A DNA stretch of 58,495 nt from a virus. Its lineage: Duplodnaviria > Caudoviricetes. A program made the position numbers and the translations under genes. Location of the stretch: positions 1 through 58,495 of IMG/VR virus record IMGVR_UViG_3300006918_000002; one strand, given 5' to 3'. Under the pieces are notes generated by a model. That model searched no databases. It worked only from the letters and a program-made list of their open reading frames with translations, and was not told the origin of the DNA. Numbering within the stretch: position 1 is the first letter of the stretch; every line of letters begins with the position of its first letter. Shown here piece by piece: positions 4,657 to 48,863 of the stretch.

Positions 4657-5220
4657 ATGTTCACTGTGTACTTTCTCCACCACGAGTCCTCCCTCACCGC
4701 AATGGCTCTCAGCGACGACCACCTTCGGGAGCAACTGGTCGAGACGGAGAGCCTTCTCGAGGTCCTGCGCCAAGGCGGCGATCAGTCGAAGTTGTTGGCG
4801 TACCGGATGTTTCGAGGCTACGACATGTTCCTGCTGCGCCACTTGTGGCAGCTCGCCCACGAGGGCCGGAGACGCAGGATGTGCGGTTACGGGGCTGACG
4901 ACCCGTATCTTCGGCAGCACGCGCAGTTCCAGCGGCACGGGATCCCCCTCGTGCTGAAGGTCCCGCGCTGGTCGGGAGCAGCGTGGCTGTACGAGTCGCA
5001 CCGGTCACAGATGATCCTCCGTGACCCGGCTCACTACGCCTGGCGCTTTCCCCGGACCCCGCTGGGGATGCCGTACCTGTACCCCCAGAACGTTCCCGGC
5101 CACTTCGAGTTCACCGTTGACGTGGCGCTGGGGGATCGGCTCTGGCTGAAGGACGGCCGTCGCGTGATCCCCCGATCTATGCTCGAGAAGTACACCCATC
5201 TCCAGGAGGCGTTCGTATGA
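4657..5220 (+). CDS. Pyrimidine-dimer DNA glycosylase/endonuclease V-like protein (MSMEG_6728-like), degenerate
   Basis: L-DD-L-EQ-VE, RMFRGY, PRW-G, ESHRSQM-LRDP-HY, PY-YP pattern recalls this family. Confidence 0.6.
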   Translation: MFTVYFLHHESSLTAMALSDDHLREQLVETESLLEVLRQGGDQSKLLAYRMFRGYDMFLLRHLWQLAHEGRRRRMCGYGADDPYLRQHAQFQRHGIPLVLKVPRWSGAAWLYESHRSQMILRDPAHYAWRFPRTPLGMPYLYPQNVPGHFEFTVDVALGDRLWLKDGRRVIPRSMLEKYTHLQEAFV

Positions 5221-6047
5221 CCACGGTGTTGGTGCTGGGCTGCGGTCCGGCGGGGCTGTTGGCCGCGCACGCGGCTAGCTACGTCGAGGGCGCGAAGGTG
5301 GTGATCGTGAGCGCCAAGAGGAGGTCGGATCTGTACGGGTGCCAGTATCTCCACAGCGCGATCCCCGGGCTTCGGTTGGCACGCACCGAGGTCTCCTACG
5401 AACTGCTCGGGAACGTCGCGGACTACGAGGCCAAGGTGTACGGCGCACCGGGGGCGGGCGGTCCGGTCAGCCCGACGCTCTTCTCGGGCCGTTACCCCGC
5501 GTGGGACATCCGGCAGGCATATGACCTCCTGTGGTCCCGCTACGAAGCCAAGATCCTGGACGTCCAGCTGTCCCCCGAGATGATCCGCCCGATGATCGAG
5601 TACTACGAAGCGGATCTGGTCGTGAGCAGCGTCCCGCTCCCCGTGCTGTGCCAGCGCCCCGAGGAGCACTCGTTCTCCGGCATCACGTGCTGGGCGATGG
5701 GCGACGCTCCCGCGCTGGGACAACGGGTTCCCGTGCCGTGCCCGGAGGACACGGTGATCTGCGACAGCACGCGCGACACGGGGTACTACCGCGTCTCCCG
5801 CGTGTTCGGGCACTCCACGGTCGAGTGGCCGGGACACCGCCATCGCCCGCCGATCGAGGGAGTGGTCAAGTTCACGAAGCCGTTGGCCACGACGTGCACG
5901 TGCTGGCTCGGCATCGGAGACACGCCGGACCAGCGTCCCGTCGTGCACCGCGTCGGGCGGTTCGGCCGGTGGCAGAAGGGGATTCTGGCGCACGAGGCGT
6001 TCAACGACACGATCAAGGCGCTCTCGGCGCTGGCGGAGAAGGTGTGA
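5217..6047 (+). CDS. FAD/NAD(P)-dependent oxidoreductase
   Basis: N-terminal VLVLGCGPAGLLAA Rossmann motif; C-terminal VGRFGRW as in UDP-galactopyranose mutase/amine oxidase-type flavoproteins. Confidence 0.8.
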   Translation: MTTVLVLGCGPAGLLAAHAASYVEGAKVVIVSAKRRSDLYGCQYLHSAIPGLRLARTEVSYELLGNVADYEAKVYGAPGAGGPVSPTLFSGRYPAWDIRQAYDLLWSRYEAKILDVQLSPEMIRPMIEYYEADLVVSSVPLPVLCQRPEEHSFSGITCWAMGDAPALGQRVPVPCPEDTVICDSTRDTGYYRVSRVFGHSTVEWPGHRHRPPIEGVVKFTKPLATTCTCWLGIGDTPDQRPVVHRVGRFGRWQKGILAHEAFNDTIKALSALAEKV

Positions 6048-6274
6048 TGTTCGCTAAGATCAGGATCGACTTCGAAGACGGCATGTACTTCATGGCCTCC
6101 CGCGTGGAGTACACCGAGGACCAGTTCTCCCTGGAGGAGAGCGAGTTCGACAGGATCACCGTCGAAGGGGAGTCCGTCGTGCGGGAGACCCTGAAGGGCG
6201 TGACGCTGGGGTTCCAGGGCGTCGCCCGCCCGAACGACGACGGCACGCTGTACGAGTGGGGGAAGTCGGAATGA
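6047..6274 (+). CDS. Hypothetical protein
   Basis: TGATG coupling upstream and ATGA coupling downstream; MFAKIRIDFEDG... Confidence 0.65.
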   Translation: MFAKIRIDFEDGMYFMASRVEYTEDQFSLEESEFDRITVEGESVVRETLKGVTLGFQGVARPNDDGTLYEWGKSE

Positions 6275-6939
6275 AGGCGAAGCTGGCCCCGCGCAGAGCG
6301 ATGAGCGCGACGCCGGGAACGGTGCTGCGCCCCGTTGTCGGCATCGACATCGACGGCACGCTGGCGTTCTGGCACGAGCACTTCCTCTGGTTTGCCAGCG
6401 AGTACACCGGGAAGAAGATGCCGGAGAAGTTCACCGGAGCGGGATCCCTTTATCAAGAGATGGGGATGAGCAGGACGCTCTACCGACAGATCAAGCTGGC
6501 ATACCGGCAGAGCGGCCTGAAGCGCGCCATGAGCCCGGTGCCCGGGGCTGCCGACATGGTGGCTGCGGTGCGCAAGGCGGGGGCGGAGGTCTGGGTCTGC
6601 ACGACGAGGCCGTACCTGCGCCTGGACAACATCGACCCCGACACCCGGGCATGGTTGCGCCGCAACAGGATCACCTTCGACGGCGTCCTGTTCGGCGAGA
6701 GAAAGTATCAAGACCTCGCCACGCTGGTAGGCTCAGAACGGGTCATCGGCGTCATCGATGACCTGCCGTACCAGGTGGAGAACGCGGAGCGTGCGGGGCT
6801 GAAGGCTCGGATGATTCAGCGGACGTACAATCAGAGATGGTGGGGTCAGTTGCGCCACGACCCCCTCCCCTCTCTCCCCGCAGCCCGCGTGTGGTTGGCC
6901 GACGAGATCCATCGATGGAAGGGAAGCAACGGTGTCTGA
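6271..6939 (+). CDS. HAD-superfamily phosphatase, 5'(3')-deoxyribonucleotidase-like
   Basis: DIDGTL motif I, CTTRP motif II, K, IDDLP motif IV, YN near the C-terminus. Confidence 0.85.
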   Translation: MKAKLAPRRAMSATPGTVLRPVVGIDIDGTLAFWHEHFLWFASEYTGKKMPEKFTGAGSLYQEMGMSRTLYRQIKLAYRQSGLKRAMSPVPGAADMVAAVRKAGAEVWVCTTRPYLRLDNIDPDTRAWLRRNRITFDGVLFGERKYQDLATLVGSERVIGVIDDLPYQVENAERAGLKARMIQRTYNQRWWGQLRHDPLPSLPAARVWLADEIHRWKGSNGV

Positions 6940-7408
6940 GAAGAGCAGGGATCAGGTGTGGAACGTCTTCGCGGAAGCGCTCCAGACCTTCGACGTGAAG
7001 AACGCCGACTACGGTGACGCGTGGCGCAAGAGCGGATGGCGCGGCAACCTGCCCCGCATCTTCGAGAAGGTCGAGAGGGTGCGCGAGCTGCTGTGGCGGC
7101 CGGACCCCCGGACCCCTGCGGTGAACGACGAGTCGGCCGTGAACACGTTGGTGGACCTGATGAACAGCATCGCGTTCGCCGTGGTCAATCTCCGCGAGGA
7201 GGTCGAGTACGGCAGCGAAGTGCCGCGCAGCGAGCGCACCGCCTGGAACCCCAGCGTCGACTCGATCATGTCCCGGGAGGCCCCGACGACCGTGGTGCCG
7301 AACCACCTTCTGTCGGAGACCTTCTCCCCCGCGCACGTGACGCCCCTCGACGAGCCCGAGAAGATCTCCGTGGCCAAGCGGCCGATCGTGGACAACCCGC
7401 AAGCGTGA
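6932..7408 (+). CDS. DUF1599/Nmad1-like nucleotide-modification-associated all-alpha protein
   Basis: F-KNADYGDAW...RIFEK-ER...ES-NTL-DL-N pattern. Confidence 0.7.
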   Translation: MSEKSRDQVWNVFAEALQTFDVKNADYGDAWRKSGWRGNLPRIFEKVERVRELLWRPDPRTPAVNDESAVNTLVDLMNSIAFAVVNLREEVEYGSEVPRSERTAWNPSVDSIMSREAPTTVVPNHLLSETFSPAHVTPLDEPEKISVAKRPIVDNPQA

Positions 7409-7468
7409 CGACCTCGGGGTGGGGTGCGGTGTCACGACCCGCATCCCGCCCCGTACCAAGGAGAGCAC

Positions 7469-7633
7469 ATGCCCTGGACGTGGTATCTGGCGAAGTGCGA
7501 GGACTGCGAGCCCCCGCTGTCCATCCCCTTCCGCGCCGAGCAGGCTCGGGATGAGTGGGTCGAGGCGCATCGCTGGGGGACGGAGAAGTTCAAGGAGGGC
7601 GGCCACACCGTGACCAAGGGCGGTCACGACTGA
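7469..7633 (+). CDS. Small Zn-finger protein
   Basis: GGAGAG RBS; CEDC...RDEW-EAH...GH; coupled to dnaE. Confidence 0.6.
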   Translation: MPWTWYLAKCEDCEPPLSIPFRAEQARDEWVEAHRWGTEKFKEGGHTVTKGGHD

Positions 7634-10600
7634 TGGCGCGTCAGTTCGTGAACCTGCACCACCACACCACGATGAGCTACGGCGACGGGTTCATGCAACC
7701 CGCCGACCACATGAAGGCGATCGCGGAGCTGGGCTACCCCGCTGGCGCGGTCACCGAGCACGGCAACGTGAGCAGTCACGTGCGCTGGGAGAAGGCGGGG
7801 CGGGAGCACGGCGTCAAGCCGCTCTTCGGGGTCGAGCTGTACATGGAGACCGACGACCCCCGGGGCCAACTGAAGAACCACCTGACCGTGATCGCGGAAA
7901 CCCAAGCGGGGTACAGCAATCTCCTCCGGCTGGTCAGTGAGAGCTGGGAGAACTTCCAGTACGTGCCGACGACCACGCCGGAGATGCTGGAACGGTTCTC
8001 CGAGGGTCTCGTGGTGAGCAGCGGGTGTCTCGGGAGCCGCCTGGCGACGGAGCTCCTAGGCGGCAAGGGATCCGACGAGAAGAAGCGCGCCGACCTCGTG
8101 GCGGGCGGTCGGGTCGTCGGGTGGTTCAAGGAGGTGTTCGGTGATCGGTACTTCCTCGAGGTGATGCCGCACCCGGCTCTCCAGAAACAGGCGCGGTATA
8201 ACGAGATCCTCGGGGAGCTGAGCACGCGGTACGACGTGCCGTTGGTGGCGACGCTCGACTGTCACTACCCGTACCCCAGCGACCAGGAGATGTACCCGGT
8301 CCTCCACGCCATCAAGCGCGGTGGCCGTAGCAACACCGTGGAGGCGCAGAGCCAGGGGTGGGAGTACGACATCATGCTGGCCCCACGGGACCCCCGGGAC
8401 ATCTACAGGGACCTGAAGGCCACGGGGCTGCACCGCAGGCAGGCAGGCGCGGCGATGGCGGCGACCCTGGACATCGCCGACCGGTGCACGGTGGAGATCC
8501 CGAAGTTCCGAGACCTGGAGTTCCTGTCCGCAGAGCCCGCCGACGAGCTGCTCCGTCGATGGGCTCGAGAAGGGTGGAAGTACCGGGGGTTCACCGCTCT
8601 GCCTCGGGCGCAGCGTCGCGCCTACGTCCGGCGGGTGAAGTACGAGCTGGAGCTCATCATCTCGAAGGGCTTCGCCAACTACTTCCTCGTCGTGGCGGAC
8701 ATGGTGAAGTGGGCCAAGGATCACGGGATTCCCGTGGGCCCCGCCCGAGGTTCCGCCGCAGCCTCGCTCGTCTGCTACCTGCTGCGGATCACCGAGGTCG
8801 ACCCGATGCACTTCCCGAACCTCATCTTCGAGCGGTTCATCGACCTCAACCGCCACGACCTGCCCGACATCGACCTCGACTTCGACGACGAGCAGCGCTG
8901 GCGGGTGCGGGGCTATCTGGTCGACAAGTACGGGGCGGAGCGCGTCGGCAACATCGGCACGTTCACCAACTGGCGCGGGAAGAACAGCCTCGATGACATC
9001 GCCCGGGTGTACCGGATCCCGCCTGGTGACGTCGAGGCCGTGAAGGAGATGATCATCGAGCGATCCTCGGGTGACCTTCGGGGCAACAGCACGCTCGAGG
9101 ACAGTGCGGCGATGTTCCCGAAGGTCGCGGCCATCATGAAGAAGCACCCGCATCTCCTGAAGGCGCAGAAGCTCGAGGGCAACATCCGGGGCATGAGCGT
9201 GCACGCGGCGGGGCTGGTCGTTGCCAACGAACCGCTCACCAACGGGGTGGCGGTGTACACCCGAGAAGACAGCAAGACCAAGCTGCGGACCAGTGTGCTC
9301 AGCATCGACAAGTACGACGCCGACTACATCAACGCCCTGAAGATCGACGCGCTGGGGCTCACCACGATGGGGATGATCCGGCGCTGCCTGGAGATGATCG
9401 GCCTGAGCCTCGCCGAGCTGTACGCGGTGAGCCGCGACGAGGAGGAGGTGTACGAAGCCTTTCGCCGCAACGAGGTCATCGGGATCTTCCAGTTCGACGG
9501 AAGGGCGATGCGGTCGGTGAACCGGGAGGTGAAGCCAGACAACTTCGCGGAGGTCTGCGACATCAACGCGCTGGCCCGCCCGGGGCCGCTGCACTCCGGC
9601 GCGGCAGCGGAGTACATCCAGGTGAAGCACGGACGCAAGAAGGCGCTCCACCTGCACCCGGTGGTCGATGAGATCACCAAGCACACCAACTTCCAGATCG
9701 TGTACCAGGAGCAGATCCTCCGGGTGGTGCGGGAGCTCGGCAACTTCACGTGGGAAGAAGCCGCCACCATCCGCAAGCTCATCTCCAAGAAGCAGGGCGA
9801 GCAGGCGTTCAACCGGATGCAGGAGTTGTTCCTGAAAGGCTGTCGTACCAACGGAGTCCCGGAGACCAACGCGCAGAAGATCTGGAAGCAGCTCGTGACC
9901 GCCGGTGCCTACGCCTTCAACGCGGCGCACTGCGTCTCGTACGGGATGCTGGCGTACTGGACCATGTGGCTGAAAGTGAAGTACCCCTTGGAGTTCTACT
10001 GCGCTGCGCTCCAGAAGTACGACCCGAAGACCAAGGGCTTCGACCTGCTGAAGGAGGCCAGCGCGCGAGGCATCCCGATCCTCCCGCCCCACCCCGTCTT
10101 CAGCACCGTGACGTGGTCGGTCGACACGAGGGAGAAGGGGTTGCGGGCGGGCTTCACGCAAATCGACGGCATCGGCGAGAAGACCGCTGTGGCCATGGTG
10201 GAGTGGCGTGACGGAGAGGACATGCCTCCAGCTCGAGTGCTCGGTCACCGTCCGGATCTTTGGCCGAACGGCTTCGGTTGGCAGGACTTTACGGAGGTGA
10301 AGGGGGTCGGAGCGGCGACCATGAAGAAGGTCGAGGCCTTCGTGGCGCAGGAGGACCCGTTCGGGATCACGCTGCTGAGCCGGAAGCTCGAGGAGGTTCG
10401 GCGGTGGCTGTGGGAGCACGGCGACGAACACGCCCTCCCCATGGCGCGCTCCCGCAGCGAGGACGTTCCCTACGAAGCCAAGCCTGGCCAACACTTCTGG
10501 CTCGGTGCGGTGCGGGAGCGCAACCTGAAGGACCTGTACGAGCTGCACCGCTCGCGGACTGGCGAGGAGCTGGATCCCGGGCAGGTCAAGGAACCGCAGC

Positions 10601-10824
10601 ACATCAACTGGTGTGTGGTGACGGGAGAGGATGAGACCGGACCGCTGACCGTGACCGTGCACCGCTTCCGGGGGCTGTACGAGAAGTACAAGGATCGCCT
10701 CTGGGAGTTGGACCCGAAGAGGGACCTTCTGTTGGTGCGCGGGCTGAAGCGGCGGGAGTACCGCCGTGCGTTGTATGCCGAAGAACTCTGGATCATCAAC
10801 ACCGAGACAATGAGGGTTTCATGA
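7633..10824 (+). CDS. dnaE: DNA polymerase III alpha subunit (family C)
   Basis: PHP domain (LHHHT-S-GDG, TEHG, GVE, DCHY); GPARGSAAASL; PDIDLDF; SVHAAG; KIDALGL; YQEQI; YAFNAAH. Confidence 0.97.
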   Translation: MARQFVNLHHHTTMSYGDGFMQPADHMKAIAELGYPAGAVTEHGNVSSHVRWEKAGREHGVKPLFGVELYMETDDPRGQLKNHLTVIAETQAGYSNLLRLVSESWENFQYVPTTTPEMLERFSEGLVVSSGCLGSRLATELLGGKGSDEKKRADLVAGGRVVGWFKEVFGDRYFLEVMPHPALQKQARYNEILGELSTRYDVPLVATLDCHYPYPSDQEMYPVLHAIKRGGRSNTVEAQSQGWEYDIMLAPRDPRDIYRDLKATGLHRRQAGAAMAATLDIADRCTVEIPKFRDLEFLSAEPADELLRRWAREGWKYRGFTALPRAQRRAYVRRVKYELELIISKGFANYFLVVADMVKWAKDHGIPVGPARGSAAASLVCYLLRITEVDPMHFPNLIFERFIDLNRHDLPDIDLDFDDEQRWRVRGYLVDKYGAERVGNIGTFTNWRGKNSLDDIARVYRIPPGDVEAVKEMIIERSSGDLRGNSTLEDSAAMFPKVAAIMKKHPHLLKAQKLEGNIRGMSVHAAGLVVANEPLTNGVAVYTREDSKTKLRTSVLSIDKYDADYINALKIDALGLTTMGMIRRCLEMIGLSLAELYAVSRDEEEVYEAFRRNEVIGIFQFDGRAMRSVNREVKPDNFAEVCDINALARPGPLHSGAAAEYIQVKHGRKKALHLHPVVDEITKHTNFQIVYQEQILRVVRELGNFTWEEAATIRKLISKKQGEQAFNRMQELFLKGCRTNGVPETNAQKIWKQLVTAGAYAFNAAHCVSYGMLAYWTMWLKVKYPLEFYCAALQKYDPKTKGFDLLKEASARGIPILPPHPVFSTVTWSVDTREKGLRAGFTQIDGIGEKTAVAMVEWRDGEDMPPARVLGHRPDLWPNGFGWQDFTEVKGVGAATMKKVEAFVAQEDPFGITLLSRKLEEVRRWLWEHGDEHALPMARSRSEDVPYEAKPGQHFWLGAVRERNLKDLYELHRSRTGEELDPGQVKEPQHINWCVVTGEDETGPLTVTVHRFRGLYEKYKDRLWELDPKRDLLLVRGLKRREYRRALYAEELWIINTETMRVS

Positions 10825-11474
10825 TGAGCTTTCGCGACCTGCTGAACATGGCCGACCAGACCGAGCTCCGCCGGGACGCGGAGGATGAATTCTCCGCCCT
10901 CGTGCGGTCGGTACTACACGACGTTCACGCGAGCTGGCAGGAGCAGAACGCCATCCTGCGCGGGCTGCTGGGGGCAGGCACGCACGTCGATGAGATGGCG
11001 CTGCTGTTCGCCGGAGAGCACGCACTGGCAGCGTTCGTGCGGTACGCCGTGCGAGAGCGAGGCTACGAGCTCTTCAACACGGCGTGGGACCACGTGGCCA
11101 CTGGCCCTATCCTCAGCCACTACGACGTGTCGTACTGGTTTCTGCGCACCCCGGGGTACGAGCCCGGGAAGAAGGGCTACCGGCTTGAGCTGATGTCGTT
11201 GCTGAGCCACGGTTCTCCGCTCCACGACAGGATGGCCGCCTTGGCGACGGGAGAGATGCGCTACCGCCCGGTGCACGCGTCGTTCAAGTGCCCCGACGAG
11301 GAGGCGTACGGCACGGCCGTCAACACGCTGAGGAAGGGCGGGTACGAGCTGGCGCAGCGCTGCTCCTCGAGCTACGGCCAGTTCTCCTACTGGCAGCACT
11401 ACGCGGCCGAGGGGACCCCGGGGTGGTTCCTCAAGCCCCGCGTGAACCTGCGTGACGAGGACGTGTCCGAGTGA
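10821..11474 (+). CDS. Hypothetical protein, possible VOC/glyoxalase-fold enzyme
   Basis: HVDEMALL...RLELM...HASFKCPDEEAY-AV-LR-GY resembles VOC beta-alpha-beta-beta-beta repeats. Confidence 0.5.
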   Translation: MMSFRDLLNMADQTELRRDAEDEFSALVRSVLHDVHASWQEQNAILRGLLGAGTHVDEMALLFAGEHALAAFVRYAVRERGYELFNTAWDHVATGPILSHYDVSYWFLRTPGYEPGKKGYRLELMSLLSHGSPLHDRMAALATGEMRYRPVHASFKCPDEEAYGTAVNTLRKGGYELAQRCSSSYGQFSYWQHYAAEGTPGWFLKPRVNLRDEDVSE

Positions 11475-12163
11475 ACGGCCCGACGCTCCTGGTGGTGGGA
11501 GCCCAGGACGGATCCCTCGGGGCGAGAATCTCTGTGGCTGCGGGGAAGGCGGGGTTCGGGGAGGTGCACACCGCTGGCCTCGGCACGGAGGAGCACGCGT
11601 GTGACGTGCGGAACACCAACGCCCTCAAGGAAGTTCTGCGGCTCACGAACCCGGACTACGTGGTGTGCACGGTCGGGGTCAACCAGCCCGCCGGGATGAC
11701 GGCGTCGAGGCTCCGGATGTTCATGGGGGACTCTTTCGAGACCAACGTGACCGGACCGATGGAGTTGCTGCGGCTGTTCCTGGACATGCCGCAGAAGCCG
11801 TCCTTCATCAAGAAGTTCGTGGCGATCAGCAGCAACAGCGCCAGAATCGCGCGCACGCAATCGATCCCGTACTGCGCCAGCAAGGCAGCCCTGTCGATGG
11901 CGTTGCGGGTGGCCGCGCGGGAGACGGCACGCTGGGAGACACGGGTTCTGATCTGGGGGTACGAGCCGGGTCTGCTGGCTGACACCCCCATGACGCACGA
12001 GACCGTGGCCCAGTGGGGCGACGTGCCCCTGCACCGGATGCCCGGGGTCGGCGCAGAAGGGCTGAACGCCAACACCTTGGCCGACCGGGTGGTCTTGGAC
12101 CTCGCACACAGCAGCGTGGGCTACCACGGGGTGCTGTTCCCGTTTGACGCCGGGGAGCAGTAG
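11471..12163 (+). CDS. Short-chain dehydrogenase/reductase (SDR)
   Basis: VGAQDGSLG, ACDV, VGVN, ETNV-G, ISSNS, YCASK (YxxxK), PG-ADTPMT. Confidence 0.9.
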   Translation: MNGPTLLVVGAQDGSLGARISVAAGKAGFGEVHTAGLGTEEHACDVRNTNALKEVLRLTNPDYVVCTVGVNQPAGMTASRLRMFMGDSFETNVTGPMELLRLFLDMPQKPSFIKKFVAISSNSARIARTQSIPYCASKAALSMALRVAARETARWETRVLIWGYEPGLLADTPMTHETVAQWGDVPLHRMPGVGAEGLNANTLADRVVLDLAHSSVGYHGVLFPFDAGEQ

Positions 12164-12264
12164 TCCAGTTCTGTTCTCTCTGGTGTGTGGTTAATGCACG
12201 ACGGTACGGTGGTGTCTCTCGGCAGTAGTGGGCGGGGAGACCCCGCCGTACCAGGAGGGCGAAC

Positions 12265-12588
12265 ATGGGCGACACCAAGGGTTTCAGCGAGAAGGTTCTC
12301 GCCGTGCTGCTTCAGTACCGCAATCAGACCGTGACGCTGGCGCAGATCTGCACCGCCACGGGTTTCTCGGAGACGTTGGTACAGCGCACGGTGAACAACC
12401 TGAAGGCGAAGAAGGAGATGCACTACTCGATCACCGTGGTCATCCGGGGGCGGGCGTGGGTGTTGCGTGACGCGCCCCCGGCGGTGGACCCGGGGAAGCG
12501 GATCTTCGAGGAGATCGGCGCAGCCAGGGACGGCAGCGTCGTCATTCAGGACAGCGCGGGGAAGCTGTACCGCGCGGTCGAACTGTAG
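12265..12588 (+). CDS. Winged-HTH-like DNA-binding protein
   Basis: VTLAQICTATGFSETLVQRTVNNL; GGAGG RBS. Confidence 0.6.
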   Translation: MGDTKGFSEKVLAVLLQYRNQTVTLAQICTATGFSETLVQRTVNNLKAKKEMHYSITVVIRGRAWVLRDAPPAVDPGKRIFEEIGAARDGSVVIQDSAGKLYRAVEL

Positions 12589-12598
12589 AGGAGTTCCT

Positions 12599-12871
12599 GT
12601 GCCGGAGCTGAACATCGCCATGGCAGACAAGGCGAAAGACGTGATCGCCGTCATCGAGGAGCAGGGAGACTTCCGCGCGTACCGCCTGGCGATGGAGTGG
12701 CCCTCGCTGGCTGCTGCGCTGGGGGAGCTGATGGAGGCGGCGGACGTGGTGCTCCCCGCCCCGTTCCGACACGCGATGATCGCGGTGCGGGAGGGGGTCC
12801 GACCCGTCATCAGCCAACCGCAACGGTTGCGCGGTGTCGAGGGGCCGACGCTCCCGAGCGGGAAGATCTGA
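12599..12871 (+). CDS. Hypothetical protein
   Basis: GAGGAG RBS, GTG start, coupled to the next ORF. Confidence 0.55.
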   Translation: MPELNIAMADKAKDVIAVIEEQGDFRAYRLAMEWPSLAAALGELMEAADVVLPAPFRHAMIAVREGVRPVISQPQRLRGVEGPTLPSGKI

Positions 12872-13143
12872 TGGAGGAAATGATGAAGGGTCTCCTCAGG
12901 CAGGTCAACGAGGAGACGTACGCGCCGGAGCTCCAGGACGGCGACCTCCGCGAGGGCGTGCGGAGTGTGTTGGAGCTGGCCGACAACGAGGAGAACTACA
13001 GCGACCCGCCGCACACCCTGGAGTCCCGGCGGTCCGCCTGGCGCGGTGGTTACCTGACCGCGATGCGAGACGTGATCGAAGCACTGGCCGACGAGTGGGG
13101 CATCACCTACACGCAGGAGCAGAACGATGGAGGAGAGAAATGA
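12871..13143 (+). CDS. Hypothetical protein
   Basis: TGATG overlap; phage-like composition. Confidence 0.6.
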   Translation: MEEMMKGLLRQVNEETYAPELQDGDLREGVRSVLELADNEENYSDPPHTLESRRSAWRGGYLTAMRDVIEALADEWGITYTQEQNDGGEK

Positions 13144-13616
13144 GAAGGTCTCGGCAGGAGAGGCTGGAGGGGGCGCGGGAGATGCTCGGGTCCTCCCTCG
13201 GACGCGCGGCGCACGGTGGGACGACTTCCCCGCCCTCCCGCTACCCGCAGCCTGGCGTCCGGCAGACCGAAGCGCTGACCGGGGCTAGGCTCATCACCGA
13301 GCGGGGATGGGTGCGGCCGGTCGCGGTCAGCCACCTGTGCTACCCGCCCCAGCAGTACCCGGACCAGTGCGGACCGGGGTCGCAGTGGCAATGCGCGTGC
13401 GCGGCGTTCTGGGTCGCTCAGGGCGTGGCCGTGCACAAGTACCCGGTCGGCGTCGGCCAGGTGGCTCGGGACGTGATCCTGGGGCCGGAGTACTGGACGT
13501 GGATGGAGGGCACCGGGTCCGCCGAACCCGAGAACTACCGAGCCCAGCAGGCGTACTGGGATTGGCGTCCGGCCGCAGACAAGATCCTCGAGCACTTGCG
13601 GGGGCAGCAGCCGTGA
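13140..13616 (+). CDS. Hypothetical protein with Cys motif
   Basis: ATGA overlap; HLC...GSQWQCACAAFW. Confidence 0.55.
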   Translation: MRRSRQERLEGAREMLGSSLGRAAHGGTTSPPSRYPQPGVRQTEALTGARLITERGWVRPVAVSHLCYPPQQYPDQCGPGSQWQCACAAFWVAQGVAVHKYPVGVGQVARDVILGPEYWTWMEGTGSAEPENYRAQQAYWDWRPAADKILEHLRGQQP

Positions 13617-13750
13617 GCGGCGAGATGATGCTCGTGGTGCTGCTCCTGGCTCTCCTGGTCGCGGTGTACCTCAAGGGCCGTAGGGACGGGGCGGAGTCGG
13701 TGCGCGGCTCCGTCCGGGAAACGCTGTGGGGCAAGGAGAAGAAGCAATGA
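13613..13750 (+). CDS. Small membrane protein
   Basis: LVVLLLALLVAVYLKG; GTGA/ATGA coupling. Confidence 0.55.
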   Translation: MSGEMMLVVLLLALLVAVYLKGRRDGAESVRGSVRETLWGKEKKQ

Positions 13751-14277
13751 ACCGTCGTGTGGTGTACCTGTCCGGGCCGATCGCCGGATACCCGGAGGGC
13801 AACGAGAAGGCGTTCCGCGCGGTGGCGACGTACCTGGAGGCCCAGGGGTACGAGGCGATCGTGCCGCATGACCTTCTGCCTGCTGTGCACGAGGGGGAGT
13901 GCCCGAAGGGGTACCGCTCGGAGGGGGCGCGGCACGCGGCAGCGTGCCACCTGCGGTCGGACCTCGTGGAGATGCTGCGCCACGCCGACGAGATCTGGAT
14001 GTTGCCCGGGTGGGAGTCCTCGGTGGGGGCTCGCCTGGAGATGCAGGTCGCCGCCGCGTGCGGTCTCCCGGTGCTGTTCCTGGCCCACGAGATGGCGACC
14101 GCCTGGCGCAGGGTCGAGCCCGAGATCACCAGGGCGGCGAAAGCCTTGCGGGACATGGGTCTCGTGATCGCCGAGCCCGAGCTGGACAGCGAGGACCCGT
14201 GCGGTCACGAGGCGCGAGACCGTAGCGGCCACTGCTTCGAGACCGAGTGCATCAACTACGCCGGAGGATATCGGTGA
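13747..14277 (+). CDS. DUF4406-like protein (nucleoside 2-deoxyribosyltransferase-like fold)
   Basis: VYLSGPIAG-P-GN-AF...ADEIWMLPGWESSVGARLE. Confidence 0.8.
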   Translation: MNRRVVYLSGPIAGYPEGNEKAFRAVATYLEAQGYEAIVPHDLLPAVHEGECPKGYRSEGARHAAACHLRSDLVEMLRHADEIWMLPGWESSVGARLEMQVAAACGLPVLFLAHEMATAWRRVEPEITRAAKALRDMGLVIAEPELDSEDPCGHEARDRSGHCFETECINYAGGYR

Positions 14278-15632
14278 ACGACAAGGAACTGAACGAGCAC
14301 GAGGGCTCGCGCCTGCACACCCCCGACGAGTGGTCGGTGGTCGACGGGGTGACGGTGATGGACCCCGACGGGTGGCGTTTCCGCGTTCGGGTCAGCGAAT
14401 CCGAGGACTACCTGCCCCGCCCCTGGGGGGACCGCATCACCCGCCAGGAATGGGACGCCCGGGTGGGCGTGAGCTCGACTTCCCGCAAGAGGAGGAGCAC
14501 CGAGGTCCAGCGTTGGGCTGACACGGCCATGTTCCGCAGTGAACCGCTCGACGCCACCACGGGGCCGAAGGTGCATCTCCTGCACATGAACAACGACCCG
14601 CTCGGTGCCATCGCGGCGTTCGCGTTGATGTACAAGGGGATCGTGGTGCGCGACCTCGCCGACGTCACCGACGAGCAGCGCCGGGAGATGTTCGAGCAGA
14701 TCAAGCAGACCCGCCTCAAGGCACCGTTCGAGGCGGTCTCGCTGCACTGGATGGTCGAGGGGGTGACGCGGTCCCTGACCCATCAGATGGTGCGGCAGCG
14801 CACGGCCGTCTTCGCCCAGGAGTCCTTGCGCTTCGCTGTGGTGGAGGATGACTTCACCGACCGGGTCGCGCTGCCCCCGTCGTTGGTGGGGACTGAAGGC
14901 ATGTGGAGGCACTACGAGGGCGAGGCGCTCAGCCTGCTCGCGCCTGCCGACGCCGGTGACCCTGCGGTTGACCGGTACGTCTCGGAGAGGATGGCGCGGG
15001 AAACCGAGGAAGAGAAGAAGCGATGGGCCTGGGATCAGGCGCTGTCCAAAGTCGAAGCGCAGTACAGCTATCTTGTCGAAAGCGGGATGCCTGCCGAAGA
15101 CGCGCGAGGACTGTTGCCGCACAACATCACCACGCGTCTCAACTACAAGACGGACCTCCGCAACTTCGCCGAGCAGGCGGGGTCGCGGCTGTGCACGCAG
15201 GCTCAGTTCGAGTGGCGCGCGCTCTGGATCGCCTTCGTGCAGGAGCTGCGCCGGTACGGTCGCACGATCACCTACACCGTTAACGAGGCCTCTCGACCGG
15301 GTGGTGTCAAGCTTCCGGTCTTCAAATCCTCGTGCTGGCAGTTCGACCTCATCGCCGAGCTGTTCCGGCCTGCCTGCTACCTCACGGGCAAGTGCGAGTT
15401 CGCCGCAATGGACCTCGACCGCAAGTGCAGCATCCGCAACCGGGTCGACGCCAACCACGAGATCGGTCGGCAGCCCTCGGAGTGGGGCAGCGAGCACGAC
15501 GTGGTGGAGGACGGTCCGATTGTCTCGGGCGTCGGCCCGAAGTCGGTGGTGCGTAACGAGGGCGGGGAACCCGTGTTCATCGGTGCCATCGACCCGCGTG
15601 AGTGGTTGGCCGACCCCGGGGCTGCGCGATGA
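14274..15632 (+). CDS. thyX: Atypical ThyX-like flavin-dependent thymidylate synthase with an N-terminal extra domain
   Basis: PFE, EGVTRSLTHQMVRQR-AVFAQESLRF, PAEDARGLLP, RLC-AQFEW; GGAGG RBS before GTG 14274. Confidence 0.8.
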   Translation: MNDKELNEHEGSRLHTPDEWSVVDGVTVMDPDGWRFRVRVSESEDYLPRPWGDRITRQEWDARVGVSSTSRKRRSTEVQRWADTAMFRSEPLDATTGPKVHLLHMNNDPLGAIAAFALMYKGIVVRDLADVTDEQRREMFEQIKQTRLKAPFEAVSLHWMVEGVTRSLTHQMVRQRTAVFAQESLRFAVVEDDFTDRVALPPSLVGTEGMWRHYEGEALSLLAPADAGDPAVDRYVSERMARETEEEKKRWAWDQALSKVEAQYSYLVESGMPAEDARGLLPHNITTRLNYKTDLRNFAEQAGSRLCTQAQFEWRALWIAFVQELRRYGRTITYTVNEASRPGGVKLPVFKSSCWQFDLIAELFRPACYLTGKCEFAAMDLDRKCSIRNRVDANHEIGRQPSEWGSEHDVVEDGPIVSGVGPKSVVRNEGGEPVFIGAIDPREWLADPGAAR

Positions 15633-15736
15633 GTCTGGTCGTCGGAGAGATCGTACGGTGCGCGGTGCTCGGCGCGCTCGCCATCGGTCTCGCGGAGCTG
15701 CTGTTCTGGCTAGCTCATCGGAAGGACCCCCGATGA
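15629..15736 (+). CDS. 35-aa single-TM peptide
   Basis: MSLVVGEIVRCAVLGALAIGLAELLFWLAHRKDPR; ATGA overlaps at both ends. Confidence 0.6.
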   Translation: MSLVVGEIVRCAVLGALAIGLAELLFWLAHRKDPR

Positions 15737-15825
15737 TCGGGCGGGTGATCGCGGGTGCGCTCTTGGTGGTGGCGCTGGTGGTTGTGGTCGTGCTGGTGAT
15801 GGCCGGAGAGGGGCTGATCGCATGA
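15733..15825 (+). CDS. 30-aa single-TM peptide
   Basis: MIGRVIAGALLVVALVVVVVLVMAGEGLIA; ATGA overlaps. Confidence 0.6.
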   Translation: MIGRVIAGALLVVALVVVVVLVMAGEGLIA

Positions 15826-15914
15826 GGTTGCTGGTGTCGGTGTTCGTCGCGCCCGTACTGGTCGTGGTGTTCCTGCTGTGGCTCAACGCAGAGATGGGGT
15901 TCCCGGTCCGATGA
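15822..15914 (+). CDS. 30-aa single-TM peptide
   Basis: MRLLVSVFVAPVLVVVFLLWLNAEMGFPVR; ATGA overlaps. Confidence 0.6.
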   Translation: MRLLVSVFVAPVLVVVFLLWLNAEMGFPVR

Positions 15915-16027
15915 GCAAGAAGAAGAGCGGTAGCGGGATCGGCAGCCTGGTCCTGTTGCTCCTGGCCATGTGGGCGATCTGGTCGCTGGTCATCAACAAC
16001 CCGCGTGCGTGGGAGTGGTTTCAGTGA
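15911..16027 (+). CDS. 38-aa single-TM peptide
   Basis: MSKKKSGSGIGSLVLLLLAMWAIWSLVINNPRAWEWFQ; ATGA/GTGA overlaps. Confidence 0.6.
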   Translation: MSKKKSGSGIGSLVLLLLAMWAIWSLVINNPRAWEWFQ

Positions 16028-16416
16028 CGAGCGGGGAGTCGGTCCAGCAGTACGCGAAGATGACCTGGCTCAAGCGCTTCAACAACGTCACGCAGACCAC
16101 GTATCTCGGGTCCCTGGAAGGAAACCGGGTCTTCGCCGTCGGCGTGATGGGCAGCGTGACCATCAAGACGGAGGACATCCCGCACTGCGTGGCGCAGCTC
16201 CGCGACATGGCGGACGCCCTGGAGAAGTACCACCGCGATCACCCGCCCCGACCCCTGCCTCCGCAGCCCGTACGAGCACGCCCTCGGACCGGCGGTCCCC
16301 GGTGCCAGCAGGCCAGCACGCGCAACGCGACCAGCAGGCACGCGTACGGCACGTGCAACACGCCTCTAGACGGCAACGGCCAGTGTGCCAACGCCAGCAC
16401 ACACGTGGGGTGGTGA
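16024..16416 (+). CDS. Hypothetical protein with C-terminal Cys/His motif
   Basis: GTGA overlap; C...GTCNTPLDGNGQC...H. Confidence 0.6.
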   Translation: MTSGESVQQYAKMTWLKRFNNVTQTTYLGSLEGNRVFAVGVMGSVTIKTEDIPHCVAQLRDMADALEKYHRDHPPRPLPPQPVRARPRTGGPRCQQASTRNATSRHAYGTCNTPLDGNGQCANASTHVGW

Positions 16417-16628
16417 TGGGTACCAAGAGAACCCTCTACGGCCACTACGACCGGTGGTTGTGGGTGGTGTGGGGAGACCGGCCGCGCCTGCACCCGTGGT
16501 TCGTGGTGACGCAGGCCGAGAAGGGCGGTGGTCCCGTGTTGCGGGAACAGGGTTCGTGGACCAAGGCCAATGGGTTCATGGTCCGCGTCGGCAAGTTGTT
16601 CGTGTCGCTACAGTTTCGGAGGATCTGA
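16416..16628 (+). CDS. Hypothetical protein
   Basis: TGATG coupling at both ends. Confidence 0.5.
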   Translation: MGTKRTLYGHYDRWLWVVWGDRPRLHPWFVVTQAEKGGGPVLREQGSWTKANGFMVRVGKLFVSLQFRRI

Positions 16629-16780
16629 TGGACCAGAAGAAGGACCTGTTGGTCGAGGTGACGCCGGGAGACTGGGAAGCGGTCATCGCGGCGTTCGCGG
16701 AGTTGCGGGAGCGGGTGGAGCGCCTGGAGCGCAAGACGTCCCCGCGCACCATGGGGATGACGGGAGACGGCTGTGTCTGA
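16628..16780 (+). CDS. Small coiled-coil protein
   Basis: AELRERVERLE; coupled. Confidence 0.5.
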   Translation: MDQKKDLLVEVTPGDWEAVIAAFAELRERVERLERKTSPRTMGMTGDGCV

Positions 16781-17060
16781 GGAGCGGTGCAAGCACGAGA
16801 TCCTGAAGGAGCCGCCCGGACAGTGCGCGGATTGCAAGGGACTCGGCGCGGTGGCGGACCCGTACGAGGGCGTTCTGGTCGAGCGGTTCCTGAACGCCAA
16901 GTACCCCGGGAAGTGCGCGCTGATCCCGGGTCACAAGATCGAGCCCGGCACCGAGATCGGCGTGCTGGTCCTGGACAACGAGGAGCACCGACCGCCGTTC
17001 AAGGTTCTCGGCTACGGGTGCCGGGCGTGCGTCTACGAGATCATCGGGAGGATCCGATGA
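16773..17060 (+). CDS. Zn-binding hypothetical protein
   Basis: CKHE...CADC...AKYPGKC...CRAC. Confidence 0.65.
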   Translation: MSEERCKHEILKEPPGQCADCKGLGAVADPYEGVLVERFLNAKYPGKCALIPGHKIEPGTEIGVLVLDNEEHRPPFKVLGYGCRACVYEIIGRIR

Positions 17061-17236
17061 CGGGGACCAAGAGTCGGGTCACCGTCGGCGCGGTAGGACC
17101 GGCGCTGAGCCCCGGGTGGTGTGCGCTGAACAGCGCTCATACCTATCGGGCGGGCGAGAGGGTCGGGTGCGCCTTCAGGGGCGGGGTCTCCCTCGGCAGG
17201 GTGTGTCCGGCGTGCACGAGAAGGCTCTCCTCGTGA
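17057..17236 (+). CDS. Small Zn-binding protein
   Basis: ALSPGWC...H...CPAC; ATGA overlap. Confidence 0.55.
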   Translation: MTGTKSRVTVGAVGPALSPGWCALNSAHTYRAGERVGCAFRGGVSLGRVCPACTRRLSS

Positions 17237-17946
17237 CCGGCCACAATGAACAGTGGCAGCCGCGTCTCCCGGTGGGGGCGCGGCTTGCCGCAGTGAACGG
17301 CGAACGCTGGCTGGTGGTCGCGGCCGACCTGGACCTCGGGTCGGGGAACACGATCTACACCGTGCGCAGGCCGTACCTCGTGCCCCCGCCCGGGTCCACG
17401 ATCTGGGACGCCACGCTGGCCCCCCTGGACTTCAGGATGTCGGAGGAGTTCCTTCTCGAATTGATCCACAGCTTCAGTGTCGGAGGTGAGGGCAGTGACC
17501 GAACGTCGCCGAGGGAATCCCCAGCGGTACTACCAAGAACGCCAGAGGAAGACGGCCGACGCCCCGAAGACGGGGCAGCCCTGGACCGCCGAGGAGCTCG
17601 TCGTCGCGCTCGACACGTCGCTGACTGGCGTCGAGGCAGCACAACGGCTCGGGCGCACGTGGGCGGCCGTCGCCAACGTGCGGAGGGCGCGGCGAGGATC
17701 ATCCGGGACCGGGCGAAGGCGCGGAGAATCCGGCACTCCTGGCTCTTCCTCCTCGTCGGACTGACCCTCTTCGTGCTGGGGGTGGGGAACGTCTACTGGG
17801 GTGTGACCGCGCCCCTGACGGCTCTTCGGGCGGTCCAGGTGGTCGGTGGCCTGCTGGCCTATGCCGCTGGGCTCTGCCTTGTCACCGTGTCATTCTCCCG
17901 AGAGGCTAAGCGTTCTCGGCCTCGACAACGAAAGCAGACGTCATGA
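17233..17946 (+). CDS. Hypothetical ORF with two C-terminal TM helices (may be two genes lacking a separating stop)
   Basis: Coupled at both ends, but the middle reads poorly where another frame codes an HTH protein. Confidence 0.4.
   Translation: MTGHNEQWQPRLPVGARLAAVNGERWLVVAADLDLGSGNTIYTVRRPYLVPPPGSTIWDATLAPLDFRMSEEFLLELIHSFSVGGEGSDRTSPRESPAVLPRTPEEDGRRPEDGAALDRRGARRRARHVADWRRGSTTARAHVGGRRQRAEGAARIIRDRAKARRIRHSWLFLLVGLTLFVLGVGNVYWGVTAPLTALRAVQVVGGLLAYAAGLCLVTVSFSREAKRSRPRQRKQTS
17495..17764 (+). CDS. Myb/HTH-like DNA-binding protein
   Basis: GGAGGTG RBS; PWTAEEL...LTGVEAAQRLGRTWAAVANVR. Confidence 0.6.
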   Translation: MTERRRGNPQRYYQERQRKTADAPKTGQPWTAEELVVALDTSLTGVEAAQRLGRTWAAVANVRRARRGSSGTGRRRGESGTPGSSSSSD

Positions 17947-18395
17947 GCTATGACCCCACGCCGGAGGCGCGACCCGCCCCGGTGCTGAACCTGCGTGCGG
18001 TGATGAAGACCACCGCCCTGACGGCGATCTACCCCGAAGCGGGTCTCGGTGCCCCGCTCGCCCTCCTGTACGTCGCGTGTGGCCTCGCCGGGGAGGCAGG
18101 GGAGACCGCCAACAAAGTGAAGAAGATCGTGCGGGACGACGCGGGGCGCGTGACCGACGCCCGCCGCGACCAGATCGTGAAGGAGCTCGGCGGGACGTTC
18201 TGGTACTGGCTGCGGCTGTGCGCCGAGCTGAACCTCGACCCGTACGAGGTGATCCACGAGAACATGAAGCTGCTCACGCTCCGGGCTGCGGACGGGACTC
18301 TGGGCGGGGACGACCAGGAGGACGGCTCCCGCGTCGCCGCCGCGATGATGGCGGAGCAGGGCCACTTCCCGGAGAACGGGGAGGCGCGGCGATGA
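17943..18395 (+). CDS. MazG-like nucleotide pyrophosphohydrolase
   Basis: GLAGEAGE-ANKVKK-RD...KELG-FWY...N-KL-R. Confidence 0.88.
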   Translation: MSYDPTPEARPAPVLNLRAVMKTTALTAIYPEAGLGAPLALLYVACGLAGEAGETANKVKKIVRDDAGRVTDARRDQIVKELGGTFWYWLRLCAELNLDPYEVIHENMKLLTLRAADGTLGGDDQEDGSRVAAAMMAEQGHFPENGEARR

Positions 18396-18984: not shown

Positions 18985-19289
18985 GCGAGGAGAACCCCCA
19001 GACCGCTCCCGGGGCGGAGAAAGCGCGAGCCGCCGCGCTCCTACCCGGGTGGTCCGCACACTTCCGGGCGATGCCGCCGGAGACGCGGAAGGCGGTGTTC
19101 GAGACGGTCGCTGCGGCGAGCGCGTTCCTCTCCGACCGACACCCCCTGGTGAAGGCGGAGTTGTCGACCGGGCTGCGGCAGGGCGCGCGGGGGAAGCTGA
19201 CCGTGCGTGAGCGGGGGATCCTCGACGCGTACTTCGCTGCGGTACAAGCTCCTCTGCTCGCGCTGGTGACGCTGGCGGAGCCGGAATGA
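18981..19289 (+). CDS. Hypothetical protein
   Basis: Coupled 102-aa ORF. Confidence 0.55.
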   Translation: MSEENPQTAPGAEKARAAALLPGWSAHFRAMPPETRKAVFETVAAASAFLSDRHPLVKAELSTGLRQGARGKLTVRERGILDAYFAAVQAPLLALVTLAEPE

Positions 19290-19891
19290 CCGGGACCGTG
19301 ATCGCTCCGGGGTGGGAGGAGCCGGGGTCGCGTCGGTACCTCTACGCCTTCGGCCTCGACCCGGGTGTCGTGACGGGGTGGGCGACCCTCCGCATCTGCT
19401 GGGAGACCTTGCTGGACAAGGGCTTCACGGACACGGTGCTGGGTGGGCGCGACCCCCAGATCTTCGCGTGGGAGAGCGGTCAGATCCTGGGCGAGGAGAA
19501 CGGGCAGGTCGACATGGTGCTGGCGCGGTATCGCGGGCTCTGGGAGGAGGGCGTGTGGGATGAAGGGGAAGGCTCGGATGTGCTGGTCGGCTCGTACGAG
19601 TCCTTCCATCTGAGGATGCTGGGGGAGGACGCGACACTGCTGGCTCCGGTCCGGATCCTCGCGAAGCTGGGCTACGTCGGCCGCGCCCTCCCCTTCCCCG
19701 TGGTGCAGCACTCGCCCAGCGACGCGAAAGACATCGTGACCGATGAGCGGTTGCGGCGCTGGGGTCTGTACGCTCCGGGGCCGGACCACCCGCGTGACGC
19801 GATGCGGCAGGCGGTCATGGTGACCCGCAAGATGGTCGAGATTCGTTTCAGGGAAGCGATGTTGAGGAGATGTCGGTGGATGCAGGGGTGA
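19286..19891 (+). CDS. RuvC-like Holliday junction resolvase
   Basis: GLDPG-TGWA, YESF, PSDAK, DH-RDAMRQ. Confidence 0.75.
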   Translation: MTGTVIAPGWEEPGSRRYLYAFGLDPGVVTGWATLRICWETLLDKGFTDTVLGGRDPQIFAWESGQILGEENGQVDMVLARYRGLWEEGVWDEGEGSDVLVGSYESFHLRMLGEDATLLAPVRILAKLGYVGRALPFPVVQHSPSDAKDIVTDERLRRWGLYAPGPDHPRDAMRQAVMVTRKMVEIRFREAMLRRCRWMQG

Positions 19892-48785: not shown

Positions 48786-48863
48786 TTTCCAATATCATTA
48801 GAGCGTGGTCATTCTGTGCGACCATTGCTCGCGGTCGGCACCGCATTTCTCAGGAGGGCAGTC

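Follow-up and report, generated by a model that had tools for sequence, protein, structure and literature searches.

Possible thymidylate supply by a divergent, long-form ThyX and an accompanying flavoprotein encoded around DnaE in actinobacteriophages

Background

Phages of the T4 and SPO1 type, which replace a base of their DNA before replication, rely on homologs of ThyA and have a deoxynucleoside monophosphate (dNMP) kinase of their own; in SPO1 all thymine is replaced by 5-hydroxymethyluracil. Thymidylate synthases of the ThyX type, in their canonical form, carry the motif RHRxxS. Here we describe a group of genes at positions 4657-18395 of the IMG/VR virus record IMGVR_UViG_3300006918_000002 (58,495 bases, completeness 93% by CheckV estimate), the whole of which we call the window. 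A long-form ThyX-like protein, a flavoprotein and several proteins likely to act on nucleotides are encoded there around a DnaE-type DNA polymerase III alpha. A sequence-only reading of this DNA had seen in these genes a candidate for a new pathway of pyrimidine hypermodification, in which the ThyX-like enzyme would attach a multi-carbon, possibly sugar-derived, unit at C5 of deoxyuridine monophosphate (dUMP), which FAD, VOC and SDR enzymes would then remodel. Our analysis supports that interpretation in part only.

Like the T4/SPO1-type systems, the window combines an enzyme of the thymidylate-synthase family with enzymes of the dNMP and deoxynucleoside triphosphate (dNTP) pools and with its own polymerase. 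Unlike them, it has neither ThyA (Pfam PF00303) nor a thymidylate or dNMP kinase (PF02223). Family calls were made with Pfam at gathering thresholds and with PHROGs, and for selected proteins with NCBIfam; the Pfam scans covered 60 translated stretches of the window, outside the structural genes at ~23.8-43 kb. The likeness to post-replicative hypermodification, as in phages M6, ViI and PaMx11, is one of broad fold class. Excerpts of PMC8989533 describe gp47 of PaMx11 as a flavin enzyme of the DAO/MnmC1 kind, and structural models suggest the same broad fold class for the flavoprotein of the window, whereas the 5-hydroxymethyldeoxyuridine (5-hmdU) DNA kinase, aGPT-Pplase, radical SAM and pyridoxal-phosphate enzymes of those phages were not found in the window. 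Judged by its gene content, the window appears to lie outside the known phage systems of base replacement and hypermodification.

Cultured actinophages offer another comparison. Phages PBI1 (Mycobacterium, Cluster D), Xenia2 (Gordonia, Cluster DV) and Gibson (Streptomyces, Cluster BN) encode, as the window does, a flavoprotein, a nucleotidase, a DUF1599-like protein, DnaE and a ThyX-like protein on one strand. They differ from it in carrying a Methyltransf_11 methyltransferase and no VOC-like gene; identities are 39-49%, and the ThyX of Gibson belongs to another divergent branch.

Presentation of the hypothesis

We propose that within the replication module of a large lineage of lytic actinobacteriophages these genes form the pyrimidine-nucleotide arm; the lineage would comprise the cultured Clusters D, DV, DG, EF, BN and AE together with many uncultured contigs of ~55-68 kb. 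The long-form ThyX would add one carbon at C5 of dUMP, and its likeliest product would be ordinary thymidine monophosphate (dTMP), to be used by the DnaE that the phage itself encodes. Unwanted dNMPs and dNTPs would be trimmed by the nucleotidase of NT5C type and by the DUF1599, DUF4406 and MazG-like proteins. The flavoprotein most likely serves the ThyX reaction by supplying either reducing power or the one-carbon unit, while the SDR and the VOC-like protein, like the methyltransferase of the cultured relatives, would be lineage-specific additions. In short, we favour thymidylate supply and pool control around a divergent, apparently phage-only ThyX with a dedicated flavoprotein, and we hold this tentatively, at slightly under an even chance.

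ThyX, MazG, NT5C, DUF4406 and DUF1599 are common in phages with ordinary DNA. We favour thymidylate supply because the core of this ThyX is homologous to solved ThyX proteins, retains the residues for dUMP and belongs to the sole thymidylate-synthase homolog of the window; because the nucleotidase matches NT5C and 5'(3')-deoxyribonucleotidase; because dNMP kinases, DNA-acting transferases, TGT and PurZ did not turn up in our searches, and the accessory enzymes vary by lineage; because palindromic hexamers are avoided, as excerpts of PMC6286503 describe for phages without restriction-blocking bases; and because full-text searches aimed at this question yielded no report of unusual DNA in the more than 100 cultured carriers. 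Nor did these searches yield a study that deals with the module, the long ThyX or the DNA composition of the cultured clusters; the papers found to mention the gene set are all genome announcements.

The long-form ThyX

The ThyX gene (14274-15632, + strand; its open reading frame (ORF) opens at 14247) scores well above the threshold of Pfam Thy1, PF02511 (94.4 against 24.8 bits, and 96.2 in a six-frame search). A GGAGGA lies upstream of the start at 14274, which gives a protein of 452 residues, equal in length to the database copy P0205. It consists of an N-terminal stretch of ~75 residues that relatives do not share, the ThyX core, and a C-terminal extension of ~125 residues. Counted along the whole ORF (461 residues), the homology of relatives begins near residue 83-89, which leaves an in-frame stretch of ~75-85 residues (14274-14528) with a weak match to phrog_11725 (E 0.003); it may represent a small domain fused to the protein, or else the start may be mis-placed.

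Against the canonical ThyX of T. maritima (TM0449, PDB 1kq4/1o26 series) the family profile gives E 1.2e-14, with a match confined to positions 59-217 of its 341, and the single sequence from the window gives E 1.7e-4. Residues were counted in 58 aligned family members, with T. maritima positions mapped from printed alignments. The equivalents of Q75, R78, R80, S88, R90, E144, R147 and R174 are retained in all 58, and that of R165 in 57. We take Q75, R78, R80, S88, R90, R147 and R174 to be the residues that contact dUMP. Since the uracil- and phosphate-binding residues are retained, the substrate would still be dUMP and the chemistry still a one-carbon transfer to C5. The probable product is dTMP. 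None of our results points to the multi-carbon or sugar-derived unit that had been proposed for this position, and the conserved dUMP-binding residues fit single-carbon transfer.

A profile search found 2400 proteins of the long ThyX family at E<=1e-5 among 8000 candidates scored, and many of these proteins are encoded by contigs 55-68 kb long. In the collection of 185,579 species genomes the protein occurred on three contigs only, all from metagenome-assembled genomes (MAGs) and one of them 65 kb long, so that the family appears essentially confined to phages. That contig, of 65,409 bases in an Actinomycetes MAG, encodes a long ThyX 40% identical to that of the window and equals these phage genomes in size; it is probably of phage origin and was binned with the MAG. 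In the collection of cultured phages 504 records matched, 110 of them at 80% coverage or more; among the matches listed, all carriers at this coverage are phages of Mycobacterium, Gordonia or Nocardia.

The flavoprotein

Directly 3' of the gene that we call g4657 lies a gene for a protein of 276 residues (5217-6047, + strand), which is annotated in phages as 'oxidoreductase' and matches phrog_8720 at E 6e-76. In Pfam no curated FAD family scores above its threshold, the best being FAD_binding_2 with 17.8 against 20.4 bits over residues 4-35 only. In an alignment of 54 sequences the motif GxGPxGL and the residues C145, C182, C227, C229, H151 and H259 are invariant throughout. At the end of the second strand a serine stands in place of the usual acidic residue, followed by a conserved stretch K-R-x-S-x-L-[FY]-G-C-Q-Y-L-H. 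The structural neighbours in the ESM Atlas are clusters of viral "oxidoreductase" proteins, then DAO, FAD_binding_3 and UDP-galactopyranose mutase (GLF, or UGM) at TM scores of 0.64-0.69, all of them flagged as insufficient for assigning a family; they suggest a two-domain fold of the UGM, amine-oxidase or DAO kind. Searches of the PDB with the single sequence and with a profile returned nothing informative.

By tblastn the flavoprotein is found in 126 phage records: 46 are from phages of Gordonia, 36 of Microbacterium, 32 of Mycobacterium, nine of Streptomyces, two of Arthrobacter and one of Nocardia. The 185,579 species genomes gave 17 pattern matches, none of which was confirmed as a relative, and the protein thus appears to be phage-only. 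A dedicated role beside ThyX is what we infer for it.

Conservation of the module

The genes on which the sequence-only reading was built are indeed all present, each where it had been placed, on the + strand and with a frame-specific G+C content at third codon positions (GC3) of 0.84-0.93. The translational coupling it had proposed also stands: start/stop overlaps of 4-8 nucleotides link most of the genes (4 between g4657 and the flavoprotein gene, between DnaE and the VOC-like gene and between the latter and the SDR gene; 8 between the nucleotidase and DUF1599 genes), and a chain of overlapping starts runs through 12620, 12871, 13140, 13613, 13747 (DUF4406) and 14274 (ThyX). Of the families, NT5C, DUF1599, SDR, DUF4406 and Thy1 are above the Pfam threshold, FAD and MazG fall below it, although PHROGs supports both, and VOC has no sequence match.

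Relatives were collected from IMG/VR in two ways. Thirteen loci were fetched through the VOC-like protein and compared by local tblastn. Their common order is primase-helicase, flavoprotein, nucleotidase, DUF1599, DnaE, VOC, SDR, in some loci DUF4406, and ThyX; the flavoprotein, nucleotidase, DnaE and SDR are present in all 13, DUF1599 in 10, DUF4406 in seven and ThyX in 11, the other two loci being cut by contig ends. For the less biased sample the long ThyX served as the query; of its 80 loci, 56 extend at least 9 kb upstream. Profile searches at E<=1e-5 found the flavoprotein in 52 of these 56, the nucleotidase in 44, DUF1599 in 28, SDR in 27, DUF4406 in 10 and VOC in nine, always on the strand of ThyX. 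In two of the four loci where the flavoprotein was not seen, the nucleotidase starts less than 80 bases from the edge of the locus, and the flavoprotein may sit just outside. As to independence, the 80 loci include three near-duplicate pairs, and five of the 13 loci overlap the larger sample. The window's MazG was met in none of the 13 loci and in none of the 16 loci of relatives.

The core is also found in cultured actinophages of Clusters D, DV, EF and BN. The annotated records of PBI1 (gp58-gp65), Gibson (gp55-gp46) and Xenia2 (gp69-gp84) show the same order as the window, and a table of the Xenia2 announcement (PMC11385102) lists the phams across Clusters AE, BN, D, DG, DV and EF. The module of the cultured clusters includes the Methyltransf_11 methyltransferase (Xenia2 gp72, PBI1 gp60). 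Methyltransf_11 is a small-molecule type and not a recognised DNA methyltransferase family.

A conserved, co-oriented module around DnaE does therefore exist, as had been proposed. Its stable core is the flavoprotein, the nucleotidase, DUF1599, DnaE and the long ThyX, and the SDR, VOC, DUF4406, MazG and methyltransferase genes are variable. The expected co-occurrence of the whole gene set holds for the flavoprotein with the long ThyX but not for SDR, VOC, DUF4406 and MazG. Of the enzymes proposed to remodel the product, the SDR and the VOC-like protein are not constant members.

The carriers all belong to one group of kin, in which identity is 49-69% for DnaE and 35-59% for the primase-helicase, and part of the co-occurrence is owed to common descent. 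This allows another explanation, in which ThyX is an ordinary dTMP synthase and the flavoprotein, the SDR and the VOC-like protein (or the methyltransferase) have a substrate that is no precursor of DNA (for instance a cofactor, a metabolite of the host or a molecule used in signalling or defence), the redox genes being located together merely as early genes of one inherited operon. The coming and going of SDR, VOC and DUF4406 agrees with it, and so does the SDR itself, for which NCBIfam returns generic matches only. On the other hand, the order flavoprotein-nucleotidase-DUF1599 is kept at 35-52% identity across clusters that otherwise share little in these genes, stop and start codons overlap and so couple the genes, and the flavoprotein has no confirmed cellular relative that would suggest a role in host metabolism. 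In our opinion, this explanation is quite improbable.

Is the product ordinary dTMP?

The absence of the usual markers of modified DNA, which the sequence-only reading had remarked on, is confirmed as far as our searches go. ThyA (PF00303), TGT/DpdA (PF01702), PurZ/adenylosuccinate synthetase (PF00709) and thymidylate kinase (PF02223) have no match in the window at E<=0.1, there is no dCMP deaminase (PF00383) in the window, and the 60 scanned stretches contain no kinase or glycosyltransferase family. The missing dNMP or thymidylate kinase is modest evidence against a modified precursor.

The window also lacks several palindromic hexamers: GGCGCC (0 observed, 33.9 expected), GCCGGC (0, 22.1) and CTGCAG (0, 9.8), while CCGCGG occurs once (55.4 expected). 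The sets of palindromes avoided differ among relatives. When 68 sequences were pooled (overlapping loci counted twice), 146 of 1534 palindromic hexamers containing A or T were strongly depleted, compared with 241 of 93169 non-palindromic ones. According to excerpts of PMC6286503, the share of host sites avoided is 2.4% in coliphages that have a hydroxymethylase and 55.8% in relatives that lack one.

A number of observations nevertheless speak against a module for plain dTMP synthesis. The first concerns the avoided sites themselves, because in a 50-kb stretch of SPO1 (record positions 20000-69999) four of 41 palindromes are strongly depleted, and in the window five of 41. Second, ThyX does not reach the NCBIfam equivalog cut-off for thyX (TIGR02170, 71.2 against 87.9). 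Its motif reads RQRTAV, with glutamine for the histidine of RHRxxS in all 58 members and V, A or T at the position of the serine; this confirms that the enzyme is atypical, as had been noted from the sequence. Further changes are invariant in the 58: R74 to H, H79 to Q, E86 to Q, Y91 to F, H53 to L, H178 to Q and D176 to C. The enzyme thereby departs from the canonical one at H53, H79, Y91 and E86, positions that presumably touch flavin and folate. The cysteine two residues past the R174 equivalent, present in 58 of 58, has no counterpart in solved ThyX, nor has the C-terminal extension with its three further invariant cysteines and the conserved end "EWLxDPGAAR". Third, the flavoprotein and the long ThyX, both apparently phage-only, stay together down to 33-45% identity. 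Finally, plain dTMP synthesis requires no second flavoprotein, SDR, VOC or methyltransferase, and a nucleotidase from a family that prefers dUMP and dTMP sits oddly beside a dTMP synthase.

The more distant, divergent ThyX of Gibson likewise has a cysteine two residues past the equivalent of R174. As to SPO1, its stretch has no CTGCAG, GAGCTC, GGATCC or TCCGGA, for which 4.0-8.9 are expected. Since SPO1 is depleted in such sites despite its modified thymine, site avoidance is weak evidence: it disfavours a bulky base that blocks restriction, but not a small change at C5. Having found the SPO1 control similarly depleted, we have downgraded site avoidance as an argument against modified thymine.

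Alternatively, a non-canonical thymidine or another C5-modified deoxyuridine would be made by a new route based on ThyX, which we think possible although doubtful. The exocyclic methylene intermediate on dUMP would then be captured by a nucleophile (water, ammonia or an amino acid) and not simply reduced; the flavoprotein, followed by the SDR, the VOC-like protein or the methyltransferase, would tailor the side chain at C5; the nucleotidase, MazG and DUF4406 would clear the canonical competitor; and DnaE would incorporate the product. Besides the ThyX score below the equivalog cut-off and the invariant ThyX changes, among them the cysteine beside the R174 equivalent and phenylalanine for Y91, the nearly constant pairing with a phage-only flavoprotein is relevant, as its fold class includes DAO/MnmC-type enzymes. 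Excerpts of PMC8989533 report that thymidine in PaMx11 is tailored by a flavin-dependent lyase of the DAO/MnmC1 type, which we treat as a lead and not as a match, and also discuss the interception by glycine of a methylene of the ThyX/MnmEG type. Thymidylate-synthase homologs have switched their chemistry before, for instance in the 5-hydroxy-dCMP synthases mentioned in an excerpt of PMC13326640. Tailoring genes occur in combinations that differ by lineage, and the pool enzymes adjoin the polymerase.

A modified precursor is harder to reconcile with other results. The PF02223 search found no dNMP kinase for a modified nucleotide; no enzyme providing a sugar or multi-carbon donor is seen, and the accessory enzymes are generic or have no assigned substrate. 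Site avoidance opposes a bulky, restriction-blocking base, though the SPO1 control leaves room for a small one. Our searches also yielded no report of unusual DNA in the cultured carriers. In its full form the claim would be that the long ThyX, with a cysteine next to its uracil-activating arginine and an extra domain bearing cysteines, and the flavoprotein together form the first flavin-dependent route, of the ThyX and not the ThyA type, by which a non-canonical C5-substituted deoxyuridine is made and then incorporated by DnaE into virion DNA; this we consider unlikely, and thymidylate supply with pool control remains the explanation we prefer.

Proteins of the nucleotide pool

The nucleotidase (6271-6939, ORF opening at 6256, + strand) is a HAD protein of the NT5C, or 5'(3')-deoxyribonucleotidase, type. 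It scores 29.0 against a Pfam cut-off of 24.8, HAD motif I, DxDxT, is present as DIDGT, and its best PDB match is the 5'(3')-deoxyribonucleotidase 2jao at E 0.0028. Its lineage occurs in 83 phage records, all of genera in which the flavoprotein is found too. PHROGs also links it to phrog_415, 'polynucleotide kinase' (E 1.7e-17). Taken with g4657 (4657-5220, + strand, 187 residues), this match could suggest a repair set for damaged phage DNA made up of a glycosylase-like protein, the flavoprotein and a 3'-phosphatase. Indeed g4657 resembles pyrimidine-dimer glycosylases and proteins of the MSMEG_6728 kind, although weakly (NCBIfam NF038085 at E 1.7e-9, under the cut-off; Pfam Pyr_excise 17.3 against 23). 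However, g4657 is found in only one of the 16 loci of relatives and so does not belong to the core, the Pfam and PDB matches of the HAD protein are deoxyribonucleotidases, and the flavoprotein tracks ThyX rather than g4657. A DNA-repair set is thus very improbable in our view.

The DUF1599 (Nmad1) protein (6932-7408, + strand), which is helical, scores just above the threshold of PF07659 (26.4 against 25). It has no tblastn match in the cultured phage collection, and with a profile we found divergent copies directly 3' of the nucleotidase gene in Gibson, Xenia2 and PBI1. The 'Nmad' names reportedly originate from Iyer et al. 2013. The DUF4406 protein (13747-14277, ORF opening at 13726, + strand), which is similar to nucleoside 2-deoxyribosyltransferases, is clear in Pfam (73.9 against 22) and PHROGs (phrog_355, E 1.2e-27); PDB searches with either of these two proteins gave nothing informative. 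The last gene of the group (17943-18395, + strand, 150 residues) matches phrog_229, 'MazG-like pyrophosphatase', at E 1.3e-22, and its score for Pfam MazG is below the gathering threshold (17.5 against 22). Its sequence supports the label 'MazG-like' only, that is, a putative nucleotide pyrophosphohydrolase. Its second acidic motif has the sequence ELGG, whereas an aspartate is usual there in MazG enzymes, and this may be why the Pfam score is low.

The VOC-like protein and the SDR

The protein of 217 residues encoded at 10821-11474 (+ strand) has no Pfam VOC family at E<=0.1, no PHROG match and no PDB match by single sequence or profile. Its ESM Atlas model (predicted local distance difference test score, pLDDT, 0.70) aligns to Glyoxalase_4/VOC clusters with TM scores of 0.48-0.54 by query and 0.62-0.70 by target, so that the VOC assignment has structural and not sequence support and is worded here as a likeness. 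The family comprises 338 representatives at E<=0.001, and the 150 among the matches listed all have E 1.2e-41 or better; the profile search returned the family itself only, with no bridge to named families among the matches listed. The protein was not found in the cultured phage collection.

The SDR (11471-12163, + strand, 230 residues) is a clear adh_short protein (45.3 against 26.6) with the catalytic YxxxK as YCASK. In the cultured phage collection it gave four weak matches only, all in Gordonia phages.

The remainder of the window

The window, from a soil phage of high-GC bacteria, has a G+C content of 62-70%, and all its GC3-supported genes are on the + strand. Only two soil-metagenome runs (contig sets) contain the stretch, one of them with a 0.19 share. 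When the entire region was compared with the phage collection by megablast, no match and thus no near-identical relative was obtained.

DnaE itself (7633-10824, ORF opening at 7555, + strand) has PHP and finger domains besides DNA_pol3_alpha (E 1.1e-69). Upstream of the group, at 1704-4535 (+ strand), Pfam domains identify a primase-helicase in which a Toprim primase-like and an MCM-type P-loop domain are united in one long protein. Its ORF opens at 1104, and the initial 200 codons look poorly coding and rich in Arg and Gly. A small helix-turn-helix protein follows the SDR (12265-12588, + strand; phrog_32114 at E 1.6e-11 and weak Pfam HTH matches). Next come four small coupled ORFs (12620-12871, 12871-13143, 13140-13616 and 13613-13750, + strand), which are supported by their frame-specific GC3 and by the overlap of their starts; Pfam and PHROGs give them no family beyond a single Pfam match below threshold (E 0.035), and they are not conserved among the 16 loci of relatives. 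A further run of small ORFs without a known family lies between ThyX and MazG (15970-17946, + strand), supported by GC3 and start/stop overlaps; two of them were matched in one or two of the 16 loci and the others are not conserved.

Beyond the group, at 19286-19891, a phrog_1981 protein takes the place of the RuvC-like resolvase of relatives. Farther along the window are packaging and structural genes, a holin, an SNF2 helicase and a phrog_1218 exonuclease. A protein of 195 residues at 48816-49403 ends in a DUF6011 domain (E 8.1e-15), and a protein of 458 residues at 50457-51833 has no family in Pfam or PHROG.

Implications of the hypothesis

If the module makes only dTMP, it is a conserved but ordinary nucleotide module, yet one that contains a phage-only branch of ThyX with four invariant cysteines and, as its partner, an uncharacterised phage-only flavoprotein. 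If the product is another one, this would be the first ThyX-based modification of DNA bases, present in phage clusters such as the Cluster D mycobacteriophages, whose laboratory hosts are harmless. Such a non-canonical route would span more than 100 cultured phages of Mycobacterium, Gordonia and Microbacterium, with the SDR, VOC or methyltransferase genes producing lineage-specific variants of the side chain. Either outcome would give a function to genes that the 126 deposited records of flavoprotein-carrying phages now label 'oxidoreductase', 'phosphatase' or 'hypothetical'.

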